A stretch of 64,000 bases of DNA, taken from Candidatus Latescibacterota bacterium. Its GTDB lineage: Bacteria; Latescibacterota; UBA2968. A model generated the notes under the pieces. It saw only the letters and a list, made by a program, of their open reading frames with translations, had not been told where the DNA came from and did not search any database. This document shows, piece after piece, positions 1-57,323 of the stretch. The stretch spans positions 3,040,001 to 3,104,000 of the forward strand of contig OZ244960.1 of NCBI GenBank assembly GCA_965222605.1, written 5' to 3'. Position 1 is the first letter of the stretch. Every line of letters begins with the position of its first letter. A program made the translations under genes and the position numbers.

Positions 1-897
1 CAATTCTGTTGCTTGCAGTGCTTTGCGCCCTGAAAGCTCGGGTTCGCGTCCGTTTTTTATGGCATCGACCAGGTCCAGCACGGACGCTGTTGTCGCATCG
101 CGCTGACTCACAGTGCCGCTGAGATCTACATCTATTTGCTGGGTACCCGATACAACGCGGAGCGGGGGAGCATTGCGTCCTCCTATTTCAATGACCCCGT
201 CGCTCCCGACCAACCGATTCTGACTACCCTGCAGCCCGGTTCCACCCGTTGCCAACAATCCCTCGCGGCCATTTCGATATCGGATCCAGGAAATTCCGCT
301 GCCTTCCACGGGCGTTCCAAAAACCTCGCGTCCGCCTTCGGCGTCAATTTGTCCGATCACCCACTCGGCGGGTTCATCGTCATTGTAAAAGAAAAACATA
401 TCAAACCAGTGGGTGCCCCAATCGAACATGTTTGGACAATTGCCCTCAAAACGCCGCAGTTCGCCAATTGCGCCAGATTTTGCTATCTCCTTTGCCTTCA
501 CAAACTGCCCAGCAAACCGTCTCTGATGGCAAAATGTAATGACCACGTCGTTATCTACGCATGCCTGATAGAGCGACTTTGCTTCTCCCCAGGTCGGTGC
601 CATGGGCTTCTCGGCGTGAATCGCCTGAATCCCACTGCCCGCCGCATCCACAATCATATCGTGATGCAGTCCTGTCCAGGTACACACACTTACAAAATCC
701 AGGTCTTCTTTTTCCAGCATGTCGCGGTAGTCTTCATAGCCGTTTTCAACACCAAATTCTTCCATATACGCCAAACGCGGCGCCTCAAATGGATCGGCAC
801 ACGCTACGAGAGCCACGTCGTCTGACGCGGTCCATCCGCGTGCATGCCCTTTACCTCGGCCTCCACAACCAATGACACCAGCTTTAAAATTCGCCAT
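1..897 (-). CDS. Gfo/Idh/MocA family oxidoreductase (3' end outside window)
   Basis: Not in the ORF track. Manual translation from ATG at 897 gives MANFKAGVIGCGGRGKGHA...LDFVSVCTWTGLHHDM...IHAEKPMA (Rossmann GxGxxG and EKP motif); AGGAG RBS upstream. Confidence 0.88.
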   Translation of the reverse strand, partial: MANFKAGVIGCGGRGKGHARGWTASDDVALVACADPFEAPRLAYMEEFGVENGYEDYRDMLEKEDLDFVSVCTWTGLHHDMIVDAAGSGIQAIHAEKPMAPTWGEAKSLYQACVDNDVVITFCHQRRFAGQFVKAKEIAKSGAIGELRRFEGNCPNMFDWGTHWFDMFFFYNDDEPAEWVIGQIDAEGGREVFGTPVEGSGISWIRYRNGREGLLATGGTGLQGSQNRLVGSDGVIEIGGRNAPPLRVVSGTQQIDVDLSGTVSQRDATTASVLDLVDAIKNGREPELSGRKALQATEL

Positions 898-931
898 TTT
901 TTCTCCTGATAGACGTTAAAAAGAACCCTGC

Positions 932-1903
932 CTACGTTGTGTAAATCGACGTTGCATCCACCACATATCCCTTTTGATTATCCACCACATTCAACAGGGG
1001 TTCTCCGGCGCAGAATCGACGCACATTTTCTACAATCAATGCCTTTCTGCGCTTGTCAATTTCGGGCGAAATACCCGCAACATGCGGCGTCAAGATCACA
1101 TTTTCCATGGACCATAATGCATGACCTTGCGGCAGCGGCTCCTCTTCATAGACATCGAGACCTGCACCACCGATCTGCCCGGATTGCAATGCGTTGGTCA
1201 GTGCGTGCAATTGGACCACTTTGCCGCGACCGATGTTGATTAAAATTCCCGTATTTTTCATCGCCCGAAACATATCCGCATCGAATAACGCTTCGGTCTC
1301 GGCTGTGTGCGGCACGCAAATTACCACAAAATCGGACTCCGCGACCATATCCGAAAGTTCATCGGGGGAATAAATACGCGCGATAAAATCGGGCTTTCCC
1401 TTTGGCGCTGGATCCAACCCCAGCACCCGCATGCCAAATACCGGGCCTCGCTCGGCAACGGACAAACCGATGCCTCCCAAACCGACCACGCCCAATGTCG
1501 TTCCCGCAAGATGGATGACCGGTGCGCCTTTTTCCCATTTGCCCTGGGACTGATTGCGAATATAGTGATGCAATCCGCGGGCAAAAGCCATTACCATTGA
1601 AAATACATGATCGGCAATGACGTCGCTGTATATCCCGCGGATATTCGTCACCGTCAAATCGCTTTTCCGCAGCTCTGGAAAGTAATATCCATCCAGCCCG
1701 GCACTCGTCGCCTGCACCCACCGCAGTTTTTTTCCTGCCTTCAAAATCTGCGCCGTCATACCTCCAAAATACGCATCTGCATCACCAATTGCAGACAGTA
1801 TGTCCTTTTCGGACTTCACGACCACTGTTTCCACACCCAGGTCGCGGATTTGCTGCATGTATTCATCTTCTAACGCCCGCTGCAAAACCATTTTTATCGC
1901 CAT
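932..1903 (-). CDS. D-2-hydroxyacid dehydrogenase (SerA/GhrA-like)
   Basis: GVVGLGGIG, INIGRGKVV, GLDVYEEEPLP, TPHVAG motifs; start moved to MAIKMV behind GGAGG. Confidence 0.9.
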   Translation of the reverse strand: MAIKMVLQRALEDEYMQQIRDLGVETVVVKSEKDILSAIGDADAYFGGMTAQILKAGKKLRWVQATSAGLDGYYFPELRKSDLTVTNIRGIYSDVIADHVFSMVMAFARGLHHYIRNQSQGKWEKGAPVIHLAGTTLGVVGLGGIGLSVAERGPVFGMRVLGLDPAPKGKPDFIARIYSPDELSDMVAESDFVVICVPHTAETEALFDADMFRAMKNTGILINIGRGKVVQLHALTNALQSGQIGGAGLDVYEEEPLPQGHALWSMENVILTPHVAGISPEIDKRRKALIVENVRRFCAGEPLLNVVDNQKGYVVDATSIYTT

Positions 1904-1919
1904 TTCACAACCTCCAGTA

Positions 1920-3200
1920 TTATGCTTGCCAGGGCACACTGCCATTTTGCTGCATTTCCGTCTGCAACAACTGACCCATCTCTCGAAATGCATCTTTCCG
2001 CGTTTTTGCCTGATCTGATGTCTCTTGAGGATCGCCGCCCAGGTCATAAAGTTCAAGGGGTTCAAAAGGATTGTTGTGCAGCAATTTGATATTGCCGCGT
2101 CGAACCGCGTGCTGATTCAGTCCGAGAAATGGGTGGCCCCCTTCTTTTCGCACCCAGTACATCGCGCGATCAGAGAAATTCTGCTTTTCGCCTCTCAGCG
2201 TTGGCAAAATAGACAGTCCCTCGATCTGGTGGTTGACCGATACACCTGCTGTCTCGCAGGCTGTGGGGAAGAGGTCCATCAGCATCGCAACATTGTCACA
2301 CACATAGCCTTTTTCGATTCCATCTGCCCACATTGCACAGGCGGGTACCCGAATCCCGCCTTCATACATCTGTCCTTTTCCGCCTTTTAACGCACCGTTA
2401 GTCGCGCCCACGTTTAACTGTCCGCCATTGTCCGATGTGTAAATCACAAGTGTATTGGAAAGTTGTCCGGTTTTCTCGAGCGTGTCCAGGACCCGACCAA
2501 TGCCCGCATCCATGTGCTCGACCAGCGCGATGTATTTCACCCGTTCGGGCGAGGCATCCGGCTCGCGCTGGCGCACCCGTTCGATCCAATCCTCTGGCGG
2601 TTGAATGGGCGTGTGCGGCGCATTATAAGCCAGATACAGGAAAAACGGCTGTGACGAATGCGCGTGTTCTCGAATCACCTCTATCGCCCATTCTGTAAAT
2701 AAATCCGTCGCGTGTCCACGCGGATCAATCACTTCGAGGCCTTTCCGCATGTAATTCTGGTCGTGCCGCAAATGCGTGTAATAATCGTCCATCATGTCGC
2801 CTAAAAAACCGTGGAAATGATCAAATCCGCGCTTACACGGATGGTTCTCAGGCTCGAGACCGAGGTGCCATTTTCCAATAATTGACGTGTGATAGTCTTT
2901 TTGTTTGAGCATTGATGGCAGTGTTACGGCATCACGACTGAAATATCCCCAGCTTCTCTCGGGATGCGTGCGAATCACACCCGGGACGCCAACCCGGTCT
3001 GGATACCGCCCCGTCATCAATGCTGCGCGACTGGGGGAGCACACGGATGAATTTGCGTAGAACTGTGTCAAGCGCATGCCGTTTTCAGCAATGCGATCGA
3101 TATTTGGCGTTTGAATATGCGGACCATGATGCGCTGAGATATCGCCATAACCGTGGTCATCGCCCAGGATTATCAAAATATTTGGCAACTGTGCCATCAA
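1920..3200 (-). CDS. Arylsulfatase (Cys-type S1 sulfatase)
   Basis: PNILIILGDD, CSPSRAALMTGRY, GKWHLG, SDNG motifs. Confidence 0.93.
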   Translation of the reverse strand: MMAQLPNILIILGDDHGYGDISAHHGPHIQTPNIDRIAENGMRLTQFYANSSVCSPSRAALMTGRYPDRVGVPGVIRTHPERSWGYFSRDAVTLPSMLKQKDYHTSIIGKWHLGLEPENHPCKRGFDHFHGFLGDMMDDYYTHLRHDQNYMRKGLEVIDPRGHATDLFTEWAIEVIREHAHSSQPFFLYLAYNAPHTPIQPPEDWIERVRQREPDASPERVKYIALVEHMDAGIGRVLDTLEKTGQLSNTLVIYTSDNGGQLNVGATNGALKGGKGQMYEGGIRVPACAMWADGIEKGYVCDNVAMLMDLFPTACETAGVSVNHQIEGLSILPTLRGEKQNFSDRAMYWVRKEGGHPFLGLNQHAVRRGNIKLLHNNPFEPLELYDLGGDPQETSDQAKTRKDAFREMGQLLQTEMQQNGSVPWQA

Positions 3201-3216
3201 TCACCTCCTTTAATAA

Positions 3217-3546
3217 TTACATGTGCCGCAGCATTCGCCGCACCAGTTCGCGTTTTTCCGCGGGGTCTTTTGCCCAGCAAATTTCCTCAAAACGATCTTC
3301 AAATATTCCGGAATTTTCGATCTTTCGATCCCGACTCAATTTTTGTAATTGCTCAAATTCACGAACATCAAGCCTGTGGGACATGCGGTTTAATGCAAAT
3401 CTGAACCGTTTCGGATTTCGAAAAAAATAAGTGCCCAATTCCCGGAGCATGTCGCCGTATTTCAAGCCTTGCTCCGCAACAGTTTCCGCCAGTTTATCAT
3501 TTTGCATGACTAAAATCCTTTTCTTACTCGTCTGCGCGTTTTCCAT
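3217..3546 (-). CDS. Hypothetical protein (~100 aa, helical, charged)
   Basis: ORF co-oriented with neighbours and filling the gap; no motif recognised. Confidence 0.6.
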   Translation of the reverse strand: MENAQTSKKRILVMQNDKLAETVAEQGLKYGDMLRELGTYFFRNPKRFRFALNRMSHRLDVREFEQLQKLSRDRKIENSGIFEDRFEEICWAKDPAEKRELVRRMLRHM

Positions 3547-3829
3547 TGGCCTCTGCTTCTTTCATCATATCGGGTAGAATGGGTATGCCTTCGTGTCGCA
3601 AACGATAAAAGTCCTCGCCGCCGCTGAGATGCGGATATCGCCCGGTCATCAATGCCGAGCGGCTCGGTTGGCATACTGCAATCGTCACATGACCGTGGTT
3701 AAACCGCAATCCTCCCGCGGCCAATCGGTCAATATTTGGCGTTGTCCCCGCTGTTGGACACCCAAAAGCCCCCACCGCATCCCAGTTCATGTCATCTGCT
3801 GTTATCAGCATAAAATTTGGTCTGTTCAT
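3524..3829 (-). pseudogene. Truncated sulfatase, N-terminal ~100 aa only
   Basis: MNRPNFMLITADD...CQPSRSALMTGRYP then stops; the rest of the fold is absent. Confidence 0.8.
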
Positions 3830-3843
3830 ATTGTTCCTTTTCA

Positions 3844-4302
3844 CTACTCTTCCCCATCGTAATATTCCGTCTCGGTCAGGCGCCCCAATTTGCCCGGTGG
3901 ACGAATTGCCCATTTATTCGAATCGGGATAATAGACCGGGTCACTTACGGGATTGTCGGCAATGACATAATAAATCAAATCTTCTGTCGCACTTGTATTG
4001 TGAATCTGATGCGCGGTGCCGGGCGGTTGAACAAATGCATCGCCTGCTCCGACTTCAAATTTGTGATTGTTGCGGCGCACAGTGCCGTGACCCCGGAGCA
4101 CGAGATAAAATTCCCATTGTACCTGGTGCGCGTGGCACGGAAAATTTATCTTGCCCGGCGGCAATCGCACCCATTCAACCTCAAATGGTTGTCCTGTGGT
4201 TTCTAATGCGGCGGAAATATCCTTCCAATGCAAACCGTATTTGCCCGTGCGCGATTGCCGTGATTTCTCCTCAATTTTCGATTCATTGATTTTTTCTATC
4301 AC
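3844..4302 (-). CDS. Cupin domain protein
   Basis: HAHQVQWEFYLVLRGHG and GDAFVQPPGTAHQIHN cupin motifs; YYPDSNKW tail. Confidence 0.85.
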   Translation of the reverse strand: MIEKINESKIEEKSRQSRTGKYGLHWKDISAALETTGQPFEVEWVRLPPGKINFPCHAHQVQWEFYLVLRGHGTVRRNNHKFEVGAGDAFVQPPGTAHQIHNTSATEDLIYYVIADNPVSDPVYYPDSNKWAIRPPGKLGRLTETEYYDGEE

Positions 4303-15139: not shown

Positions 15140-15203
15140 CCTTACTTTTTGTTCGAAAACTCCTTTTTATCCCTGAGAATTGTCGAACAAAAAGATGCAA
15201 AAT

Positions 15204-15256
15204 TCAAACTGTTCTAAATTCACGTCGTTCAGTGAGCCATACCCCTTTGCAATGAC
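15204..15256 (-). repeat. Diverged duplicate of the addA 3' end (partner 16002-16055)
   Basis: Encodes ..KGVWLTERREFRTV* versus addA ..KGLWLTERREFRAI*; 9 differences in 54 positions by manual alignment, including a 1-nt gap. Confidence 0.9.
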
Positions 15257-15292
15257 CTTGATTTGTGCATCATTTGTGCATATCTTTGTTTT

Positions 15293-15574
15293 ATGAATTA
15301 TCAATGGGACCCAGAAAAGGCAGAATCAAATTTCCTTACACATGGTGTTGATTTCGCTGACTCAGTAGGAGTATTTGAGGATATCTGGGCATTGACCTTG
15401 AAAGAAGAGATTGAATCGGGTGAGCAACGATTTGCCACTCTTGGTACCGATTTCTTTGGACGAATTTTGGTTGTCGTTTATACATATCGAAACGAAGACA
15501 TCCGTTTAATTTCCGCTCGCCCCGCAACGCGTCGGGAAAGGAGAATATATGAAAAAAAAAGAATATCATTTTGA
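15293..15574 (+). CDS. brnT: BrnT family toxin (RNase)
   Basis: MNYQWDPEKAESNFLTHGVDF...EQRFATLG...VVVYTYR...IRLISARPATRRE; TTTGTGCAT repeated twice just upstream (candidate operator). Confidence 0.92.
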   Translation: MNYQWDPEKAESNFLTHGVDFADSVGVFEDIWALTLKEEIESGEQRFATLGTDFFGRILVVVYTYRNEDIRLISARPATRRERRIYEKKRISF

Positions 15575-15809
15575 AACCGCCCAACAAGGCCCTGTCGTCC
15601 AGCCACCACCCGGCAAGACGCGTATCACCATTCGCCTTGACACAGATGTACTGAATTGGTTTAAGAAACAGGTTCATGAAGCAGGGGGCGGAAATTATCA
15701 GACGCTTGTGAACCAGGCCCTCAGAGAACACATCCAGGCTAACAATGGAGTATTGGAACAAACACTACGCAAAGTCATTCGCGAAGAACTCAGTTCACGC
15801 GCAGTCTAA
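15549..15809 (+). CDS. brnA: BrnA family antitoxin (RHH)
   Basis: KTRITIRLDTDVLNWFK...YQTLVNQALR; overlaps brnT. Confidence 0.92.
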   Translation: MKKKEYHFETAQQGPVVQPPPGKTRITIRLDTDVLNWFKKQVHEAGGGNYQTLVNQALREHIQANNGVLEQTLRKVIREELSSRAV

Positions 15810-15810
15810 C

Positions 15811-15849
15811 ACAAAGACGCCGATGCCTGGGTAGCATCGGCGTCTTTGT
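15811..15849. terminator. Hairpin terminator after brnA
   Basis: Perfect 16-bp inverted repeat ACAAAGACGCCGATGC / GCATCGGCGTCTTTGT immediately after the stop. Confidence 0.75.
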
Positions 15850-16001
15850 TCGTAAACGATAGTGGCTATTCTATCACAGCGGTTTTGAACGTCCTTCTGA
15901 AGCGCGCGTCTGAGCATGGGAAGAGAATTGAATTTCTGCGAAGTTGTACACCGCTCCGATTAAAGTCACACATGACGTTAATTTTTATTAAACGCCATCT
16001 T

Positions 16002-19000
16002 TCAAATGGCTCTAAATTCACGTCGTTCCGTCAGCCACAAGCCCTTTGCAATAACGGTTTCTCCGGTGAAATTCTCCCAGTGTTTTGCATAGGTGTTCAC
16101 CTGATCGGCTGTTTGTTCGCACAGTGCTTGTACATCTTCATCGGTTTTGACCGCATTGGTTTTGTAATCGACGATTTTCCATCCTTTGGGCAGGCGATAG
16201 ACCAGATCGATGACGCCACGAATAATGTTGTTGGGTGAGGAGTTGTTCACCGTTTGCGGTACCGCAAAGGGGACTTCGGTATAGACGGTTTCTGAAGCCT
16301 GAATTTCTGCCCATATCTCCGAGTTGCGAAAATGCTGCAATGCGTCCAGCGCGTGCGGTAGAAACGCGGTGTCTGCACCCGCCTCATTCAGTAGATGTAT
16401 GACATAAGGTGTGGGATCAGCGGGCAATCGCATGTTGATGGCATCGTCGAATATCTGGTGAACCACGGTGCCATACGCAGCCCCCTTGCCCGCTACTGAT
16501 CGCCTCTCGTCCAAATATGCGATATCCGCCCGATCATCCGTCACCTGCGCGACTTCAAACGATTCTTTTTTCACAACTTTCCAGAAATGATCTCTTTGCT
16601 CGTGTTCCAGGCTGAAAGGCCGCGTTTCGAGAGGGGGGGCTTCTATTGTGGGATATTTTGCCAACTCCGGCACATTTTTAAGATGGGGATAGAGCGGCGA
16701 CCACGGTCCATGGTCGGGTTTTTCCTCGTAGGTGGATATTATGAGCAAATTTTCTGCGCGTGTTGCAGCCACGTAGAGCAATCGCAGTTCTTCGCCTTGC
16801 AAAAATCGCGTCTCTTCGGCTTCGGCATCTTCCCAACCCACAGGCTCGGCAACGACCTCGCGTTGATATGGTCCGCGGGGTTTTGTAATGGGCAATGCCA
16901 AAAAGGGTTCGTCGCTGGTGCGGGATACGTGAAATTCGGGGCCGTAGCGCGTGTAACTCGTGTCATAGGGGTCGGCGAGGAAGACGATTTTGCCCTGTAA
17001 TCCTTTTGCCTGATGCAGATTCATCAATCGCACGACATCTTCCTGTGCAGAAGAGAGGGTCATTTGTTCAATTTTGTAGTCTCTGTCGTCAATGAGGGCA
17101 CGTAGCTCGGTCACCACCTGCCCCCAATGCAATCCCTGCGCGCTCCACTCGCGGACGAGAGATAATATGCGAATGAGATTGCCTGCATGTGTGGCGCCCA
17201 TGGGCAGGGCGCGCACAAAAGGCAGGAGGCCGAGCTTTTCTACACAGCGCGCTATGGCGGCATCTGGCGATAGGGATTGCAACCATTTCGATGCTTTTTT
17301 GAGATGATCATAAGCCTGCTCGAACGTTCGGTGTAATTTTCGATCCATTCCTTTGGGCAAATCGCGTGTCCAATTAAAATCACCGCCTGCTTTTTTGAAC
17401 GCATAGAGTGTATCATCTCCCAGGCCGACGAGATCCCCCCGCAAATAGGCGAGTAGTGGAAGCGGATTGTCGGGCATATAAACCGTTTCCAAAAAATCCG
17501 TGAGTGTGTGCAATACGTCTGCTTCGCCAAGGCGATTGCCACCCGTGATATCAAAGGGAATACCGCACTTTTCCAGAGCCTGGGCATAATGGGACAAAGA
17601 GCCAGAGGTGCGCGTTAAGATGAGAAAGTCCCCCGGTGATGCTTTGGGAGGAAGCGCGGCGGTTTCTCCCGCGCCATTAAATTCTGTTTTGCCCTCTATG
17701 GCTGCGGCGATGAAATTTGCAATCTGATCTGCGTCTTCCGTCGCGATTTGGCTTCGGCTGTTGCGATAGACTTTGTCGATTGAGATTCGGCGAACTGCAA
17801 AATTCTCGCCATCGGGTCTGTATTTGAATAGGGGTGCAAATTCGGCTTGATAGGGTTTTTCGTGCGCGGCGAACAGGGGTTCGAATGCCGCGTTGATCCA
17901 ATCGCAGAGGTGGCTCACTGAGCGAAAGTTTGTGTTCAGGTTGACAATATCGCCATTGGTGTCGTCAATGCGCTTGCGGACGAGGTCAAAGGTTTCGACA
18001 TCCGCGCGGCGAAAGCGGTAGATTGACTGTTTGCCATCGCCGACTAAAAATAAACTACCCGGGCGGGGTGTGAGTTTGCGCCAGTCGGGTTCTTCCAAAT
18101 TTTCGCCGGTTAAATACAGCAATATTTCGGCCTGGATGGGATCGGTATCTTGAAATTCATCTACGAATAGGCAGCGATAGCGATCCTGAAAGTGATGGCG
18201 AACTTCGGGGTGGTCGCGCAGTAATCGCGCGGCCAATTCGAGCAGGTCTTGAAATGTGAGGCGACCGGATTCGCGACGGGTTCTGGCGTATTCTTCAACG
18301 GCATCATCGACATAGGGCGCAGCAAATTGGTAGATGTATTGCCGCCATTTGGTGAGGGTGGGGTCGAGTGTTTCGGCTTGAAATTCGGATAATAAGGTGT
18401 CTCGCAAGTGCTTTGCAAAATCCTGGTTGGGTGCCCAACTTTTCAGAGTAACGCTGAGGTTTCCGGTGAGTATTTGCAAGAGGGCGATGCGATCCGCATC
18501 GGAGTGAATCCCCCGATTCGACAAGAATAAGCGCGCGCGCGTCAAAGCTGTCTGGAGGGCATCGCGTCTGCCGGGGAGTGGATCGGGGATATAGGCTCCT
18601 GCGCGTTGTAGAAATGCTTTCAGTTTTGAAACTGCGGTCGATAAGTCGGGTTTTTGTACAGATTCGGATACGAGCGGTACATCGCTGAACAGGCAGCGTC
18701 TTTGAAAAAATCCATATAAATCTTCCGGGCGCAGGCCAAGTTCTTCAAATTTGGCGAGTTGCGGGTCTTCGGATAGAAAACACTGTTGTACAAACCGATC
18801 CCATGCTTCGCGGCGCATCACGGCTTCTTCGCGCTCTTCGACTTCTGAAAAATCGGGCGGCAGACCCGCTTCAACGGGGCGTTCTCGCAATAACTGGCCG
18901 CAGAATGAGTGTATGGTGCCAATAAAGCATTGATCTACTTTTTCGAGTGCTTTTTGAATGCGATGCAGGTCTTGACCGTCTGCGTTTTTGGCGCGCGATT

Positions 19001-53138: not shown

Positions 53139-55532
53139 TCATTCATACCGCAACGCTGTCGCTGGGTCGGTCAAGGCTGCGCGAATAGCCTGCGTGCTCA
53201 CTGTCATGATCGCGATTGCCATTGTTAGCAACCCACTCAGCACAAAAATTAGTGCACCCAAATCTATGCGATACGCAAACCTCGCCAACCACTCATTCAT
53301 AGCCCAATAGGCCAGCGGAAATGCGATCAGATCGGCCAGCAGTACCAAAATCACAAATTCCCGCGAGAGCAAACGCACAATATTGGGTACGGATGCGCCC
53401 AGCGTCTTGCGGATGCCAATTTCTTTGGTGCGTTGCTCTGCCGTAAATGCCGCCAGGCCAAACAGGCCCAGGCACGCTATTACAATCGCCAGCCCGGCAA
53501 ATACGGTCACAAGTGTTCCAATCCGTTGTTCGGCCATATAAGAGCGCGCCAAATATTCGTCTAAAAATCGATACACAAACGGTTTTTCGGGAATATATTT
53601 CTGCCATAGTTCACCGATATATTTAAGCGTCTCTTCAATATCCTCACCGCGAATTTTTAGTGATAGCACATTGAATTTGGGTTGCCACATCGCAATTGCC
53701 ACGGGCCGAATGACTTCGTGTAGCGACCGGTTGTGAAAATCTTTTACCACGCCGATCACAATTCCCTTTTCTCGATTGTACGCAGACCATCCAAACGCCT
53801 TTCCTATCGGCTCAGTCCACCCCAATCGCTTCACGGCAGTCTCGTTTAAGATAAACGCCCGAGACGTATCTGCTACCATCGAAAAATTGCGACCCGCTAT
53901 GAGTTCCAAATTATAGGTGTCTAAAAAAGCTTCATCTACCCCCATAACGCGCATCCGCCAGTCTTCACCTCCTCTGCCCTCGGGAAATACCCTGTCCAGT
54001 TGTCCCCCATATCCCATCGTAGAATGCGCTGCCGATGCTTTCAAGATATTTGGGTGCTTCAAAAATTCATTCTTGACATTCAAATAATCATCTGTCAATC
54101 GCCGATCTGTCGCAAATAGCCAGGTTAGAACCATGAGATTTTTATCAAATCCCAGATTTTTATTTTGCACATAATTCAACTGCTGATACACCGTGTATGT
54201 ACCCGCAATTAGAAATGTCGAGATCGCAAATTGAAATACCACGAGAATCTGTCGCAGTCGGCCGCTTTTGGCACCTGAAACAAGCGTGCCTTTCAGGACC
54301 ATTACAGGCCGAAAGCTGGACAAAAACAGTGCGGGATATCCTCCGGCGAGTACGCTCACCAGCACCGTTAAAACAAATAGCCCGGCAATCGCATACCACA
54401 GGGTCTGTCCTTCAAGCGCAATTGTTTTTTGGGCAAAGTTATTCAGGAGAGGCAGTGAAAATTTTACAATAATTAGCGACAATATCCCGGCCAATAGTGC
54501 GGTCAAAAACGTCTCTCCCAAAAACTGTCGAATCAATTGGGCGCGATAGGCCCCCACGACCTTCCGCAACCCAACTTCGCGTGCCCGTCGCGCAGAACGC
54601 GCTGTTGATAGGTTCATAAAATTGATGCACGCAATCAGCAGAATAAATAGCCCGATGATTGCAAAGAGGTACACGTAGGTGATGTCGCTATAAGCTGAGA
54701 TGCCATAATCCACCCTGGAATACAGATAAATCCGATCAAGAGGCTGCAAAAAATAGGTGCTCTTTTTGACGATCTCATCACCCATATATCGCGCCATAAA
54801 TTTGGGTAATTTTGCTTCGAGTGCCGTAGCATCTGCGCCTTCTCGCAATAAAATGTAATTTTGTGCCGGTCGCCAGGTTGAATCCACGGCCCACTGTTCA
54901 AATACATTCCGCGTCCAATAGGTGTTCACCGTTGCACATACAATGTCAAACTGCATGGTTGATTGTCGAGGCACGTTTTTTAGTACGCCAGTAATCGTAT
55001 ATACCCCACCCATATACCGATCATCGACTGTAAGCACTTTTCCTATTGGATCGTCATCCCCAAAGAATCGCCGCGCCGCTGTCTCTGTCACCAAAATGGA
55101 AAGCGGTTCTTTGAGAACCGTCGCCCTATCTCCTATCACCAGTTCAAAATCGAAGACATCCAAAAAATCGGGATCTGTCAAACAGAACCGCTGATTAAAT
55201 TTGCGGTCTTTATACGTGGTCCAGCTATAGTCCAACATATATCGCACGACTGTTTCGATTTCTGAATAATCTTTTTTTAGCGCGGGGCCCGCTGCGCCCG
55301 ATGTGCCAAAACCCATGTCGCGGATACCGCCATCGTTGCGCATCTCGCGGAGCAATTTGTAAATCCGATCGCTCTTTGTGTGAAACCGATTGACGCGAAA
55401 TTCATCGTGAATGAATAATCCGATCAGGACACAACAAGCCACGCCCACCGATAATCCCAGTACATTGATCAGCGAGTACCCCTTGTGACGCATCAAATTG
55501 CGCAGGGCGATTTTCAGATAGTTTTGGAGCAT
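53139..55532 (-). CDS. MacB/FtsX-like duplicated ABC permease
   Basis: MLQNYLKIALRNL, ACINFMNLSTARSARRAREVGLRKVVGA, EQRTKEIGIRK, ALRYE. Confidence 0.93.
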   Translation of the reverse strand: MLQNYLKIALRNLMRHKGYSLINVLGLSVGVACCVLIGLFIHDEFRVNRFHTKSDRIYKLLREMRNDGGIRDMGFGTSGAAGPALKKDYSEIETVVRYMLDYSWTTYKDRKFNQRFCLTDPDFLDVFDFELVIGDRATVLKEPLSILVTETAARRFFGDDDPIGKVLTVDDRYMGGVYTITGVLKNVPRQSTMQFDIVCATVNTYWTRNVFEQWAVDSTWRPAQNYILLREGADATALEAKLPKFMARYMGDEIVKKSTYFLQPLDRIYLYSRVDYGISAYSDITYVYLFAIIGLFILLIACINFMNLSTARSARRAREVGLRKVVGAYRAQLIRQFLGETFLTALLAGILSLIIVKFSLPLLNNFAQKTIALEGQTLWYAIAGLFVLTVLVSVLAGGYPALFLSSFRPVMVLKGTLVSGAKSGRLRQILVVFQFAISTFLIAGTYTVYQQLNYVQNKNLGFDKNLMVLTWLFATDRRLTDDYLNVKNEFLKHPNILKASAAHSTMGYGGQLDRVFPEGRGGEDWRMRVMGVDEAFLDTYNLELIAGRNFSMVADTSRAFILNETAVKRLGWTEPIGKAFGWSAYNREKGIVIGVVKDFHNRSLHEVIRPVAIAMWQPKFNVLSLKIRGEDIEETLKYIGELWQKYIPEKPFVYRFLDEYLARSYMAEQRIGTLVTVFAGLAIVIACLGLFGLAAFTAEQRTKEIGIRKTLGASVPNIVRLLSREFVILVLLADLIAFPLAYWAMNEWLARFAYRIDLGALIFVLSGLLTMAIAIMTVSTQAIRAALTDPATALRYE

Positions 55533-55553
55533 GATTGTTTCTACAGAATGGGG

Positions 55554-55644
55554 TTATAGTTGTTCATCCCGGTCTAACCATCCGTCCGATAGATGTATGA
55601 TGCGGTCTCCATAAGAGGCGTTCTTCTCTGAGTGCGTGCATTGG
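55554..55644 (-). repeat. Diverged duplicate of the ABC ATPase 3' end (partner 56306-56396)
   Basis: QCTHSEKNASYGDRIIHLSDGWLDRDEQL* versus QCTHSEKNAAYGDRIVHLSDGWLDRDEHL*; 9 mismatches in 91 nt by manual alignment. Confidence 0.93.
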
Positions 55645-55656
55645 TCGGGCAACCAG

Positions 55657-56252
55657 TCACGTCAGACAATGCGCCACTGCGTCTCTGTACGTTTCGAGCA
55701 CTGGGGTTTCCAGGTTCTTCACCTTGGCCAGATCATCCCATTTCCTGAGGTGCACGGCATTCTGGTAGTAAGGATTGCTTTCGAACTCGGTCCTTTCCCG
55801 ATCTGACATGAGGCCTCCTTGCAGTTGGAAACTATGCTTAGAGGCTTCGGAAAGGGTGTTGTAGTAGGTCGAATCCGTGGTGCAGATGTATCGCTTGGCC
55901 GGAACGTGAAGTTTCACCGGTTCGGTCACCGCCTCGATAAAAAAGGGCGCTATGTACGCGGCGCCCACTTCTTCGTGGAGAAAGTCCTGGGTGTGGAAAT
56001 CTGCGTTTTCTGCGTGTTCGTCCATCAGAAAATGGCCGATATCGTGCAATAGTGCGGCAGTTATCTGAATCGCGTCTCCATTGGCGAGCTGGGCCAGATT
56101 GGCGCACTGGAGCGCGTGTTCGAGTTGCGTTACGACTTCGTCGTAGTAGGACTGGCCCCTCGCTTCCATGTAGGCGAACAGAGCATCTATTTTTTTTCTG
56201 GCCTGCCTTCGGTCAATTCGTTCGCGAGTGTTGGATTGACGCGTTCCTTCAT
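55657..56252 (-). CDS. HD-domain PhnZ/TmpB-like diiron oxygenase; 5' end out of frame at an A8 tract
   Basis: EVVTQLEHALQ, AALLHDIGH, HEEVGA, HVPAKRY, SFQLQGG, LRKWDDLAK in 55657-56169; upstream ATG at 56252 joins only with one extra A at 56190-56197. Confidence 0.82.
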
Positions 56253-56305
56253 TTTGGCACCATCTTTCTCTAAAAATGTTCGAGTGATAAATTTAATTAG
56301 AGGGA

Positions 56306-56980
56306 TTACAAATGTTCATCCCGGTCCAACCATCCGTCCGATAGATGTACGATGCGGTCTCCGTAAGCGGCGTTTTTCTCTGAGTGGGTGCATTGGACGA
56401 TGGTTACGCCTTCGGCATTTAGATGTTTGAAGAGGGTCATGATCCGCTCGCCTTCTGCCGAGTTTAAGTTGCCGGTTGGTTCGTCTGCCAGGATCATTTT
56501 TGGCTGTGTGATCAATGCTCGGGCTACGCCTACCAGTTGTTGTTGTCCGCCGGATAACTGGTTGGGGAATAGTCGCTTTTTTGCCACGATGTTGAAGCGG
56601 TCCAGCATTTCGGCGATGCGGCCTTTGCGTTCGGCGCCTTTTACTTTTTGATATAAGAGGGGTGTTTCCAGATTTTCGCCGACGGTTAGTTCGTCGATTA
56701 GATGGTAGCTCTGAAATACAAATCCGATGTGGTCTCGGTGCAGTTCGGTCAATGCGCGTTCGTCCAGTTTGTGAACTGCGCGGTTGTAAAAATGGTACTC
56801 TCCATTCGAGGCGGTGTCCAACATGCCCAGGATGTGCAATAGGGTTGATTTGCCGGCTCCAGAGGGTCCCATGATGGATACAAATTCCCCTTCGCGGATT
56901 TCCAGATCAATCCGGCGCAGTACGAATGTTTTTACGACGCCATTTTCGTAGTATTTTTCGATGTTTTTTAGTTCGATCAT
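56306..56980 (-). CDS. ABC transporter ATP-binding protein (MacB/LolD type)
   Basis: GPSGAGKST, LSGGQQQ, ILADEPTGNL, THS; start moved to MIELKN behind AGGAG. Confidence 0.94.
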   Translation of the reverse strand: MIELKNIEKYYENGVVKTFVLRRIDLEIREGEFVSIMGPSGAGKSTLLHILGMLDTASNGEYHFYNRAVHKLDERALTELHRDHIGFVFQSYHLIDELTVGENLETPLLYQKVKGAERKGRIAEMLDRFNIVAKKRLFPNQLSGGQQQLVGVARALITQPKMILADEPTGNLNSAEGERIMTLFKHLNAEGVTIVQCTHSEKNAAYGDRIVHLSDGWLDRDEHL

Positions 56981-56990
56981 TTTTAGCTCC

Positions 56991-57248
56991 TTATGCGCGG
57001 CGTTCGAATAGGATAGATACTTCGCGTTCGGATGGCTCGCCAATTTCTACGAGGGACCAGTCTGCGTCGTAGTTTTCCACAATCCGCTTCAAACACATGA
57101 CTCTCTGTTCGTGGGGTTGGGCGTGTTCCTCCCAGGCGAATAGTTCCATGCGGTAATCGTATTTTCTGCTTTTGCCGTTTACCACCACGGTTACTTCCAC
57201 GGTGTCTTCGGCGTCTAAAGGCGGCAATTTGATCGAGATTTTGGGCAT
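56991..57248 (-). CDS. Small hypothetical protein inside the ABC operon
   Basis: 85-aa ORF MPKISIKLPP... with GGAG RBS; ends 10 nt before the ATPase start. Confidence 0.7.
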   Translation of the reverse strand: MPKISIKLPPLDAEDTVEVTVVVNGKSRKYDYRMELFAWEEHAQPHEQRVMCLKRIVENYDADWSLVEIGEPSEREVSILFERRA

Positions 57249-57273
57249 GGTGATTCTCCGAAACAACGGTCAA

Positions 57274-57323
57274 CGGGCGACCACAGGCACTGCCCCGTAA
57301 TGTTTTTATACGGGGGGTCGCCC
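57274..57323. repeat. GTAG-type REP variant carrying a nested mini-hairpin
   Basis: CGGGCGACCACAG..GGTCGCCC arms as at 5133; inner CCCCGTAATGTTTTTATACGGGG at 57293-57315. Confidence 0.7.

Follow-up and report, generated by a model that had tools for sequence, protein, structure and literature searches.

How does a single gene come to lie within a bacterial operon, between intact neighbors, when no recombinase is encoded beside it? Most small bacterial accessory genes show no visible means of arrival. The question is raised here by a 64,000-nucleotide stretch of the genome of a Candidatus Latescibacterota bacterium (contig OZ244960.1, positions 3,040,001 to 3,104,000), referred to below as the window. 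In it, a gene for a PhnZ/TmpB-like HD-domain oxygenase (HD) lies between an ATP-binding cassette (ABC) transporter ATPase gene and a permease gene, and the 3′ end of the ATPase gene occurs twice, once in place (the working copy) and once on the far side of HD (the orphan). The 6.34-Mb source genome of the window (G000) was compared with 20 relatives (G001–G020), which are Candidatus Latescibacterota metagenome-assembled genomes. We find that the HD gene is a real, one-off insertion and that the orphan is non-functional and decaying. The insertion was probably anchored by homology in the ATPase end and closed by an illegitimate joint; the cassette would then have spread, and the process appears to have recurred at the ends of other genes.

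A repeat search returned two direct copies of 98 nt, 55550–55647 and 56302–56399, which are 89% identical. The E-value of the pair, 5.9e-31 in a 12-kb self-BLAST, rules out chance. In the ungapped alignment, homology sets in sharply at CCAATG and ceases 4 nt beyond the stop codon. The original prediction, made from the sequence of the window, had placed a duplication of the last 91 nt of the ATPase gene at 56306–56396 and 55554–55644, with nine mostly synonymous differences, a single PhnZ-like gene between the copies and the orphan 21 nt ahead of the permease gene. These coordinates are correct, and a recount also gave nine differences, six of them synonymous and three not (A>S, V>I and H>Q). 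One HD-domain open reading frame (ORF) lies between the copies, and the orphan stop codon ends at 55554, with the permease ATG at 55532. The insert, about 654 nt long, comprises a 49-nt leader, a 597-nt gene and a 12-nt trailer (Table 1).

The locus was taken from 19 of the 20 relatives; in one of these, G012, the contig ends within the ATPase gene. HD is present at the ATPase–permease site in 13 of the 19. In G013 and G001, the permease gene follows the ATPase gene directly, with 19 and 82 nt between them, respectively. In G019, which lacks HD, the ATPase gene is joined to a permease fragment only, and G010 and G016 have an ≈80%-identical ATPase gene without HD. By protein search, HD was found in 13 of the 20 relatives, as a single copy in each and only at the ATPase–permease locus, and it was absent from the four outgroup species (G001, G016, G010 and G018). 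Empty alleles ending in the orphan type of sequence had been predicted, and the orphan had been taken for the ancestral ATPase end. The empty alleles exist in G013, G001 and G019 (with part of the permease gene missing in the last), and the one in G013 carries the orphan-type end, its single copy adjoining the permease gene just as the orphan does in G000. The 21-nt intergenic stretch of G000 also matches the sequence that follows the single ATPase end in G013.

The junction between trailer and orphan survives in 10 relatives and is identical in all of them, so there was a single insertion event. The orphan itself has a 7-nt deletion in G015, G006, G008, G009 and G003, a 4-nt insertion in G014 and larger deletions in G002, G007 and G017, in the last of which it is nearly lost. 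It is wholly gone from G020, G011 and G005, where the end of HD is fused to the permease leader. These indels, some of which shift the frame, together with the losses, identify the orphan as a neutral relic of that single event.

Table 1. Coordinates of features in the window at the ATPase–HD–permease locus and at the second example.
Feature	Position	Strand	Remarks
ABC transporter ATP-binding gene (MacB/LolD-type)	56306..57043	-	longest ORF; PF00005, E 3.8e-32
Working copy of repeat	56302..56399	-	ATPase last 94 nt including stop, plus 4 nt
Insert leader, 49 nt	56253..56301	-	between repeat end and upstream ATG of HD gene
PhnZ/TmpB-like HD-domain oxygenase gene	55657..56252	-	PF01966; NCBIfam; solved-structure homologues
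Insert trailer, 12 nt (CTGGTTGCCCGA)	55645..55656	-	between HD stop and orphan
Orphan copy of ATPase 3′ end	55550..55647	-	ends ...DEQL* at 55554; ancestral-end relic
Native intergenic stretch, 21 nt	55533..55553	-	before permease start
ADOP/MacB-type duplicated FtsX permease gene	53139..55532	-	PF12704, PF02687; TIGR03434, E 3.3e-92, below cut-off
addA-like second example	15203..16055	-	UvrD/PD-(D/E)XK gene 3′ end duplicated around toxin-antitoxin pair on +

An orphan gene end could also be the remnant of a deleted tandem paralogue, once a full-length ATPase gene. The region does contain ATPase and permease genes arrayed in tandem, and in G003, G007 and G009 an extra FtsX-type permease gene of ≈2.4 kb directly follows the orphan stop codon. 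However, no relative has anything beyond the 98 nt, and the orphan is 89–98% identical to the working copy, compared to about 70% for the neighboring paralogous ATPase. The common left junction in every relative and the existence of empty alleles contradict a paralogue remnant, which we consider highly improbable. We can scarcely credit a strain-chimeric assembly either. The genomes are metagenome-assembled, but an artefact is rejected because the same layout, decaying differently from lineage to lineage, is found in 13 other assemblies (13 of the 19 related loci) and in independent Logan contigs from three runs. The Logan contig of run X1 equals window positions 54900–56971 with no differences, and the junctions are also spanned in contigs of X3 and X5. 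One RNA-library run yielded both an empty-allele contig and a contig of an orphan-less allele, possibly from different strains.

Two relatives show further changes at this site. G008 has a 157-nt hairpin-rich insert just after the orphan, and it shares with the empty allele of G019 an altered ATPase end with three extra codons. These changes may represent a small mobile element.

Did the two copies of the repeat differ when the insertion arose? The original prediction took the nine differences as the mark of a 3′ end acquired from a relative. They do not show this, since the orphans of other species are 95.8–98.7% identical to the G000 working copy, compared to 89% for the orphan of G000 itself. 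The consensus of the working copies equals that of the orphans over about 80 nt (alignment judged by eye), and the consensus copies differ at two or three positions by the stop codon (CTG TAA T in one, CTA TAA C in the other). Such near-identity indicates that hardly any difference separated the copies when the insertion arose. Three or four of the G000 differences represent an allele that recurs in the empty G019 and in two working copies, those of G004 and G005, while the orphan of G004 carries the G000 working allele. The differences in G000 are mostly lineage-specific or correspond to alleles present in the working copies of other species. What the differences do reveal is a shuffling of repeat alleles between working and orphan positions across species. 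Given the near-identity at origin and the sharing of alleles, the nine differences are no evidence of a foreign 3′ end.

The HD cargo is younger than its host species. Diversity was measured among the 14 HD carriers. At third codon positions, it was 0.023 for HD, 0.130 for the ATPase gene and 0.128 rising to 0.182 for the permease gene; for dnaN and recF in the same 14 genomes, it was 0.163 and 0.149, respectively. HD is thus about six times less diverse than either its flanks or dnaN and recF. The diversity of HD at first and second positions was 0.008, so the low third-position value is not simply a result of strong purifying selection. Over all sites, the values were 0.052 for the ATPase gene, 0.057 for the first 150 nt of the permease gene and 0.013 for the body of HD, describing a sharp trough. 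HD is 98.6–99.4% identical to that of G000, and the identity of dnaN-recF to G000 is 89–93% in the 16 ingroup relatives and 81–86% in the four outgroups. This deficit of diversity in HD indicates that the gene spread among the species after their split. In a tree of dnaN-recF, in which most ingroup branches were unresolved, the empty G013 is nested with the HD-carrying G002 (support 100/97). We take this pattern to mean that the cassette spread laterally, or swept, at this one locus once the species had separated, with crossovers presumably in or near the repeats.

The same layout was said to recur at an addA-like gene elsewhere in the window, and it does. The UvrD/PD-(D/E)XK gene end is duplicated there over ≈55 nt, with a working copy at 16001–16055 and an orphan at 15203–15256 (84% identical), on either side of a BrnT/BrnA pair (PF04365, E 2.1e-25; PF14384, E 5.9e-12). 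In 10 of the 20 relatives, the allele is empty, and the two flanks share one copy of the repeat. The orphan immediately precedes brnT, a position at which the promoter of the pair would be expected. At the end of a class A beta-lactamase-like gene, the cargo is BrnT/CopG and the repeat is 216 nt long and 93.5% identical; here the empty allele, found in 6 of the 20 relatives, again has the orphan-type end. A third gene, encoding a PhyH-type protein, is followed by an AAA-ATPase/PDDEXK_9 gene as cargo. Its orphans in G000, G002, G017, G005 and G015 have a common right end, shortly beyond the stop codon, but differ in their left ends (query positions 914–999), which could reflect either separate events or later nibbling.

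Several observations were made around these loci. The addA-like gene with its BrnT/BrnA insert lies upstream of dnaN. In relatives, the BrnTA unit is found within arrays of small accessory genes separated by a repeat of ≈60 nt (for example, at positions 640–4150 of a G015 locus); this repeat contains a terminator-like hairpin, and G000 has two copies of it (2759157–2759215 and 2759844–2759897). The AAA-ATPase_like + PDDEXK_9 gene at the PhyH locus (G000 5642973–5646014) occurs in many copies, 73–88% identical, in every genome of the genus.

In three relatives, the addA site holds 5–7 kb more cargo between the same repeats, including DDE transposases, a NucS-like nuclease and leucine-rich repeat proteins. 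This raises the question of whether the cassettes are remnants of a site-specific integrative element that carried a replacement 3′ end and later lost the rest. Direct repeats of the target 3′ end lie on both sides of the insert, and the upstream one makes the gene whole again, as expected for such an element, and the larger addA cargo would fit as well. However, all 13 HD-carrying relatives hold only the HD gene between the repeats, the larger addA cargo lacks an integrase, and a scan of 60 cargo and flanking proteins turned up none. The targets have no common core, and there is no recombinase in cis at HD, in agreement with the original prediction: the nearest of the 10 PF00589 (tyrosine recombinase) matches in the genome lies about 357 kb away. 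We therefore regard a degraded integrative element as quite unlikely.

To what extent is this layout found in the genome as a whole? Each 12-kb chunk of the genome was compared with itself, and direct pairs of 40–400 nt with at least 80% identity and at least 100 nt apart were kept and sorted against crude ORF calls. The scan yielded 320 non-redundant local direct-repeat pairs. In 17 of these, the 3′ end of a gene is accompanied by an intergenic copy downstream (14 minus-strand genes and 3 plus-strand genes), whereas the mirror arrangement, a 5′ end with a copy upstream, occurs in four (binomial p = 0.007). In another 10 pairs, the intergenic copy is on the wrong side (8 at 3′ ends and 2 at 5′ ends). 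About 11 of the 3′ cases are clean, with the stop codon in both copies and homology ending 0–20 nt beyond it, while the mirror and wrong-side cases are mostly terminator-like elements or belong to a single segmental duplication of ≈5.5 kb. (Three repeat pairs in G000 5569000–5582500, with offsets of about 5.5–5.7 kb and 96–97% identity, suggest that a recent segmental duplication took place there.) Across the loci, repeat lengths range from 50 to 280 nt, and the cargo includes BrnT/BrnA, BrnT/CopG, DUF3368/UPF0175, AAA_21 proteins, AAA-ATPase/PDDEXK_9 and an 11-kb type I restriction-modification island. One locus, at 1.445 Mb, was left out of the comparison with relatives, as its genes are multi-copy. 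A genome-wide scan for the same route had been called for, and the excess of 3′ ends is in line with it. The layout recurs, as the original prediction had suggested. A shared junction motif, which was looked for by comparing sequences by eye, was not seen among different events. None of the papers listed in a literature search dealt with toxin-antitoxin insertions with duplicated flanks, as judged by titles and the beginnings of abstracts.

What process could have produced these insertions? We infer the first event from its outcome. It would have been a single recombination event within the genus, in which the incoming DNA already consisted of an ATPase 3′ end joined to the cargo. The donor ATPase end would have paired by homology with the resident one, while the other end was closed or joined illegitimately at a short microhomology (CCAATG). 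The illegitimate joint may have been formed in the chromosome, by homology-facilitated illegitimate recombination (HFIR), or the fragment may have been circularized first and then integrated by a single, Campbell-type crossover; neither route would need a recombinase in cis. The duplication would end just past the stop codon because donor and recipient cease to be alike there, and variable left ends would also be accounted for. A homologous anchor of the HFIR kind is plausible, as the working copy continues into the ATPase gene, and the putative joint lies at CCAATG, with one shared CG beside it. Thereafter, homologous recombination within or next to the repeats would carry the cassette between species at this one locus, and recombination between the two repeats could remove it again. 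Repeats of 50–280 nt are within the range usable by homologous recombination. Repetition of the process at other gene ends would load the genome with toxin-antitoxin, defence and accessory genes. Taken as a whole, this sequence of events, from homology-anchored insertion with an illegitimate joint through spread to recurrence, is the one that we consider probable, with some reservation; its account of the insertion is also the most economical when all loci are taken together.

The reservation stems from a number of points that weigh against it. Copies that were near-identical at origin fit a close-relative donor and a donor-less duplication in situ equally well. Species differ freely in the terminal codons of the addA-like gene, which makes the two or three fixed differences at the ATPase end weak evidence of a donor end. 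The leader and the N-terminal 132 nt of HD have a diversity of 0.055, compared to 0.013 for the HD body, so the cassette does not have one uniform age; moreover, the diversity of the flanks dips only slightly, and a simple double crossover in long flanks therefore explains the spread poorly. The scan relies on crude ORF calls and shows an unexplained strand skew (14 minus versus 3 plus, p = 0.013), although the gene counts of the two strands are 2575 and 2645. The search for a donor arrangement was negative: 12 HD loci from outside the genus were checked and had no adjacent ABC genes, and a scan of metagenome contigs for the HD 3′ end gave 0 matches. Neither a circle nor an excision joint was seen in the Logan contigs, although contigs cannot reveal rare forms. 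ComEC and DprA are present, but they are also found in 10–11 of 14 control genomes; neither these nor the absence of Ku from the genome discriminates between mechanisms.

The near-identity of the copies also bears on template switching in situ, of the microhomology-mediated, break-induced replication type, in which no donor-borne 3′ end is involved. A nascent strand would have left the template past the ATPase stop codon, copied about 654 nt of a different molecule and returned 98 nt upstream, at CCAATG. The identity of the working and orphan consensus over about 80 nt is as expected from such an event, as are the short stretch common to the junction, CG(T/A)CCAATG, and the absence, by eye, of a motif linking the junctions of different events. 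A random process, however, explains by itself neither the right ends at 0–20 nt past the stop codon in the events read nor the 17:4 excess of 3′ over 5′ ends; all of the filtering would be left to selection. The searches turned up no copy of the HD unit that could have been its source. We consider template switching unlikely.

A different kind of explanation is suggested by a unit consisting of BrnTA plus the orphan, cut exactly at the repeat end, which is found elsewhere in G015 (twice), G003 and G004. The duplicated 3′ end might be a portable attachment site, such that ordinary recombination would loop out cargo plus one copy and insert it into related genomes with an intact end. The conserved junctions, the sharp trough in diversity, the shuffled repeat alleles and the traveling BrnTA unit are all consistent with this; we nevertheless regard it as doubtful. 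In its stronger form, a dedicated cassette system acting in trans would excise cargo plus one repeat as a circle and return it to intact gene ends. The identical junctions in all carriers, the confinement of the trough to the cassette, the exchange of repeat alleles between positions, the empty allele nested among carriers and the BrnTA units at other loci would all agree with such a system. However, RecA-type recombination between repeats of 50–280 nt suffices, with no need for a dedicated enzyme, no candidate enzyme or common motif was found, and no circle joint was present in the contigs, the only material in which it was sought. A dedicated system is distinctly improbable. Homology-anchored insertion with an illegitimate joint thus remains our preferred reading.

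Comparison with known systems helps to place the insertion. Integrative elements such as phage 21 and e14 at icd, and islands in tRNA genes, carry a replacement 3′ end for their target. As in those elements, the target 3′ end occurs twice around the insert, upstream as the end of an intact gene and downstream as a pseudo-end; here, however, there is no integrase in the insert or nearby, the insert comprises a single gene of about 654 nt, and different loci have no common core. The minimal mobile elements of Neisseria are whole-gene cassettes that are exchanged between conserved genes by transformation and homologous recombination. They resemble the HD insert in being gene-sized, present or absent among relatives and devoid of mobility genes, and they spread by homologous recombination, to which the young cargo and the nested empty allele may also point here. 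To our knowledge, minimal mobile elements have not been described with a 50–280-nt duplication of the upstream gene end, and a further difference is that the diversity trough here is confined to the cassette. Like an integron cassette, the insert is a promoter-less single ORF with minimal flanks in a transcribed array, but no integron integrase is nearby, and the repeat is host coding sequence rather than a structured attC. The 12-nt trailer is directly followed by host coding sequence, and an Rfam search of 55300–57300, in which no attC model was run, gave no match.

A close likeness may be drawn with Rhs, contact-dependent inhibition (CDI) and type VI secretion system (T6SS) effector-immunity arrays, for which Kirchberger et al. 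(2017; PMC5361080) propose that orphan 3′ ends were displaced by HFIR. The likeness consists in entry by homology to the upstream gene, displacement of the old end as an orphan without an integrase, and the ability of successive events to build arrays. The differences are that here the very end of a housekeeping-type gene, including the stop codon, is duplicated, that the cargo is an unrelated whole gene rather than a toxic C-terminus with its immunity gene, and that the orphan is functionless and decaying. According to another study (PMC12359135), gene gains are associated with recombination in flanking persistent genes. In our assessment, the HD insertion is a new form of this already known, recombination-driven gain of cassettes.

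What, then, is the cargo? Relatives encode an HD protein of 198 residues, starting at an ATG 84 nt upstream of a 170-residue ORF in G000 (ATG 56252), and the N-terminus thus added resembles the N-termini of homologues from other lineages. The frame is intact in 11 of the 13 genomes read (198 residues, or 204 in G007). In G000 and G003, however, an A-run at 56190–56197 has eight A rather than nine, and the frame is broken: in G000, translation from ATG 56252 stops after 21 codons, and the 170-residue ORF restarts at ATG 56169, leaving a gap of 136 nt between it and the ATPase gene. The run has nine A in eight other genomes read, while in G009, G007 and G017 one A is replaced by C and the frame is kept. 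The Logan contigs show A8 in X1, the best-holding run, and A9 in X3, X5 and X17. The short run in G000 and G003 may reflect genuine inactivation, switching by slippage or an assembly error common to both.

The 170-residue ORF of G000, to which the following profile scores refer, matches the HD domain PF01966 (E 6.7e-06; 26.8 bits, cut-off 22). Among NCBIfam models, it matches NF052439 from profile position 30 (E 6.6e-75; 250.9 bits, under the cut-off of 300), TIGR03276 from profile position 13 (E 3.6e-57; 192.8 bits, under the cut-off of 214.6) and NF049941 (162.1 bits, under the cut-off of 300). The 198-residue form from G004 is homologous over nearly its full length to the solved structures of TmpB (6npa, E 1.5e-33) and PhnZ (4mlm, E 2.7e-30). 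The blocks LEHxLQ, LLHDxGH, HEExGA, HVxAKRY and RxWD align between the three, and we take their conserved His and Asp residues to be metal ligands. The likeness to PhnZ and TmpB thus extends to both the structures and the NCBIfam PhnZ-type models, but the cargo falls under both curated cut-offs, its frame is shifted in G000, and its neighbors are of exporter type, an ABC ATPase and an ADOP/MacB-type permease, with no phosphonate uptake genes. No PhnY-like 2-oxoglutarate dioxygenase or phosphonate genes are adjacent. Outside the genus, HD homologues are 44–55% identical in a sample of the order and 61–72% identical in other metagenome-assembled genomes, the latter from other Latescibacterota, Gemmatimonadaceae and Poribacteria.

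HD is probably transcribed by read-through in the operon. Counts of promoter and terminator sites in the cassette did not exceed those in shuffled sequence, and no promoter-like site was seen ahead of the insert. A contig from an RNA library spans the ATPase end, HD and the start of the permease gene in a related allele, which is a weak hint of read-through. Upstream, the NCBIfam matches of the ATPase ORF begin only at residue 22, so the real start of the gene is probably near 56980. Just past the permease gene, on the opposite strand, lies a gene for a PcfJ-like protein of 571 residues (PF14284; 51419–53134, +).

The displaced copy of an upstream gene end is a scar of arrival, and it can be read at about ten loci of this one genome, with empty alleles confirmed at three of them. 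At the HD locus, the cargo has spread over at least 14 species after their divergence. If the scar is a general signature, gene gains that involve no mobile-element enzyme would become countable and datable from sequence, even in uncultured phyla, and it would show how single genes slot into operons without breaking them. If, in addition, the duplicated end did serve as a portable site, it would provide an integrase-free, integron-like route for toxin-antitoxin, defence and metabolic genes, by which such genes could sweep across species that are about 90% identical.

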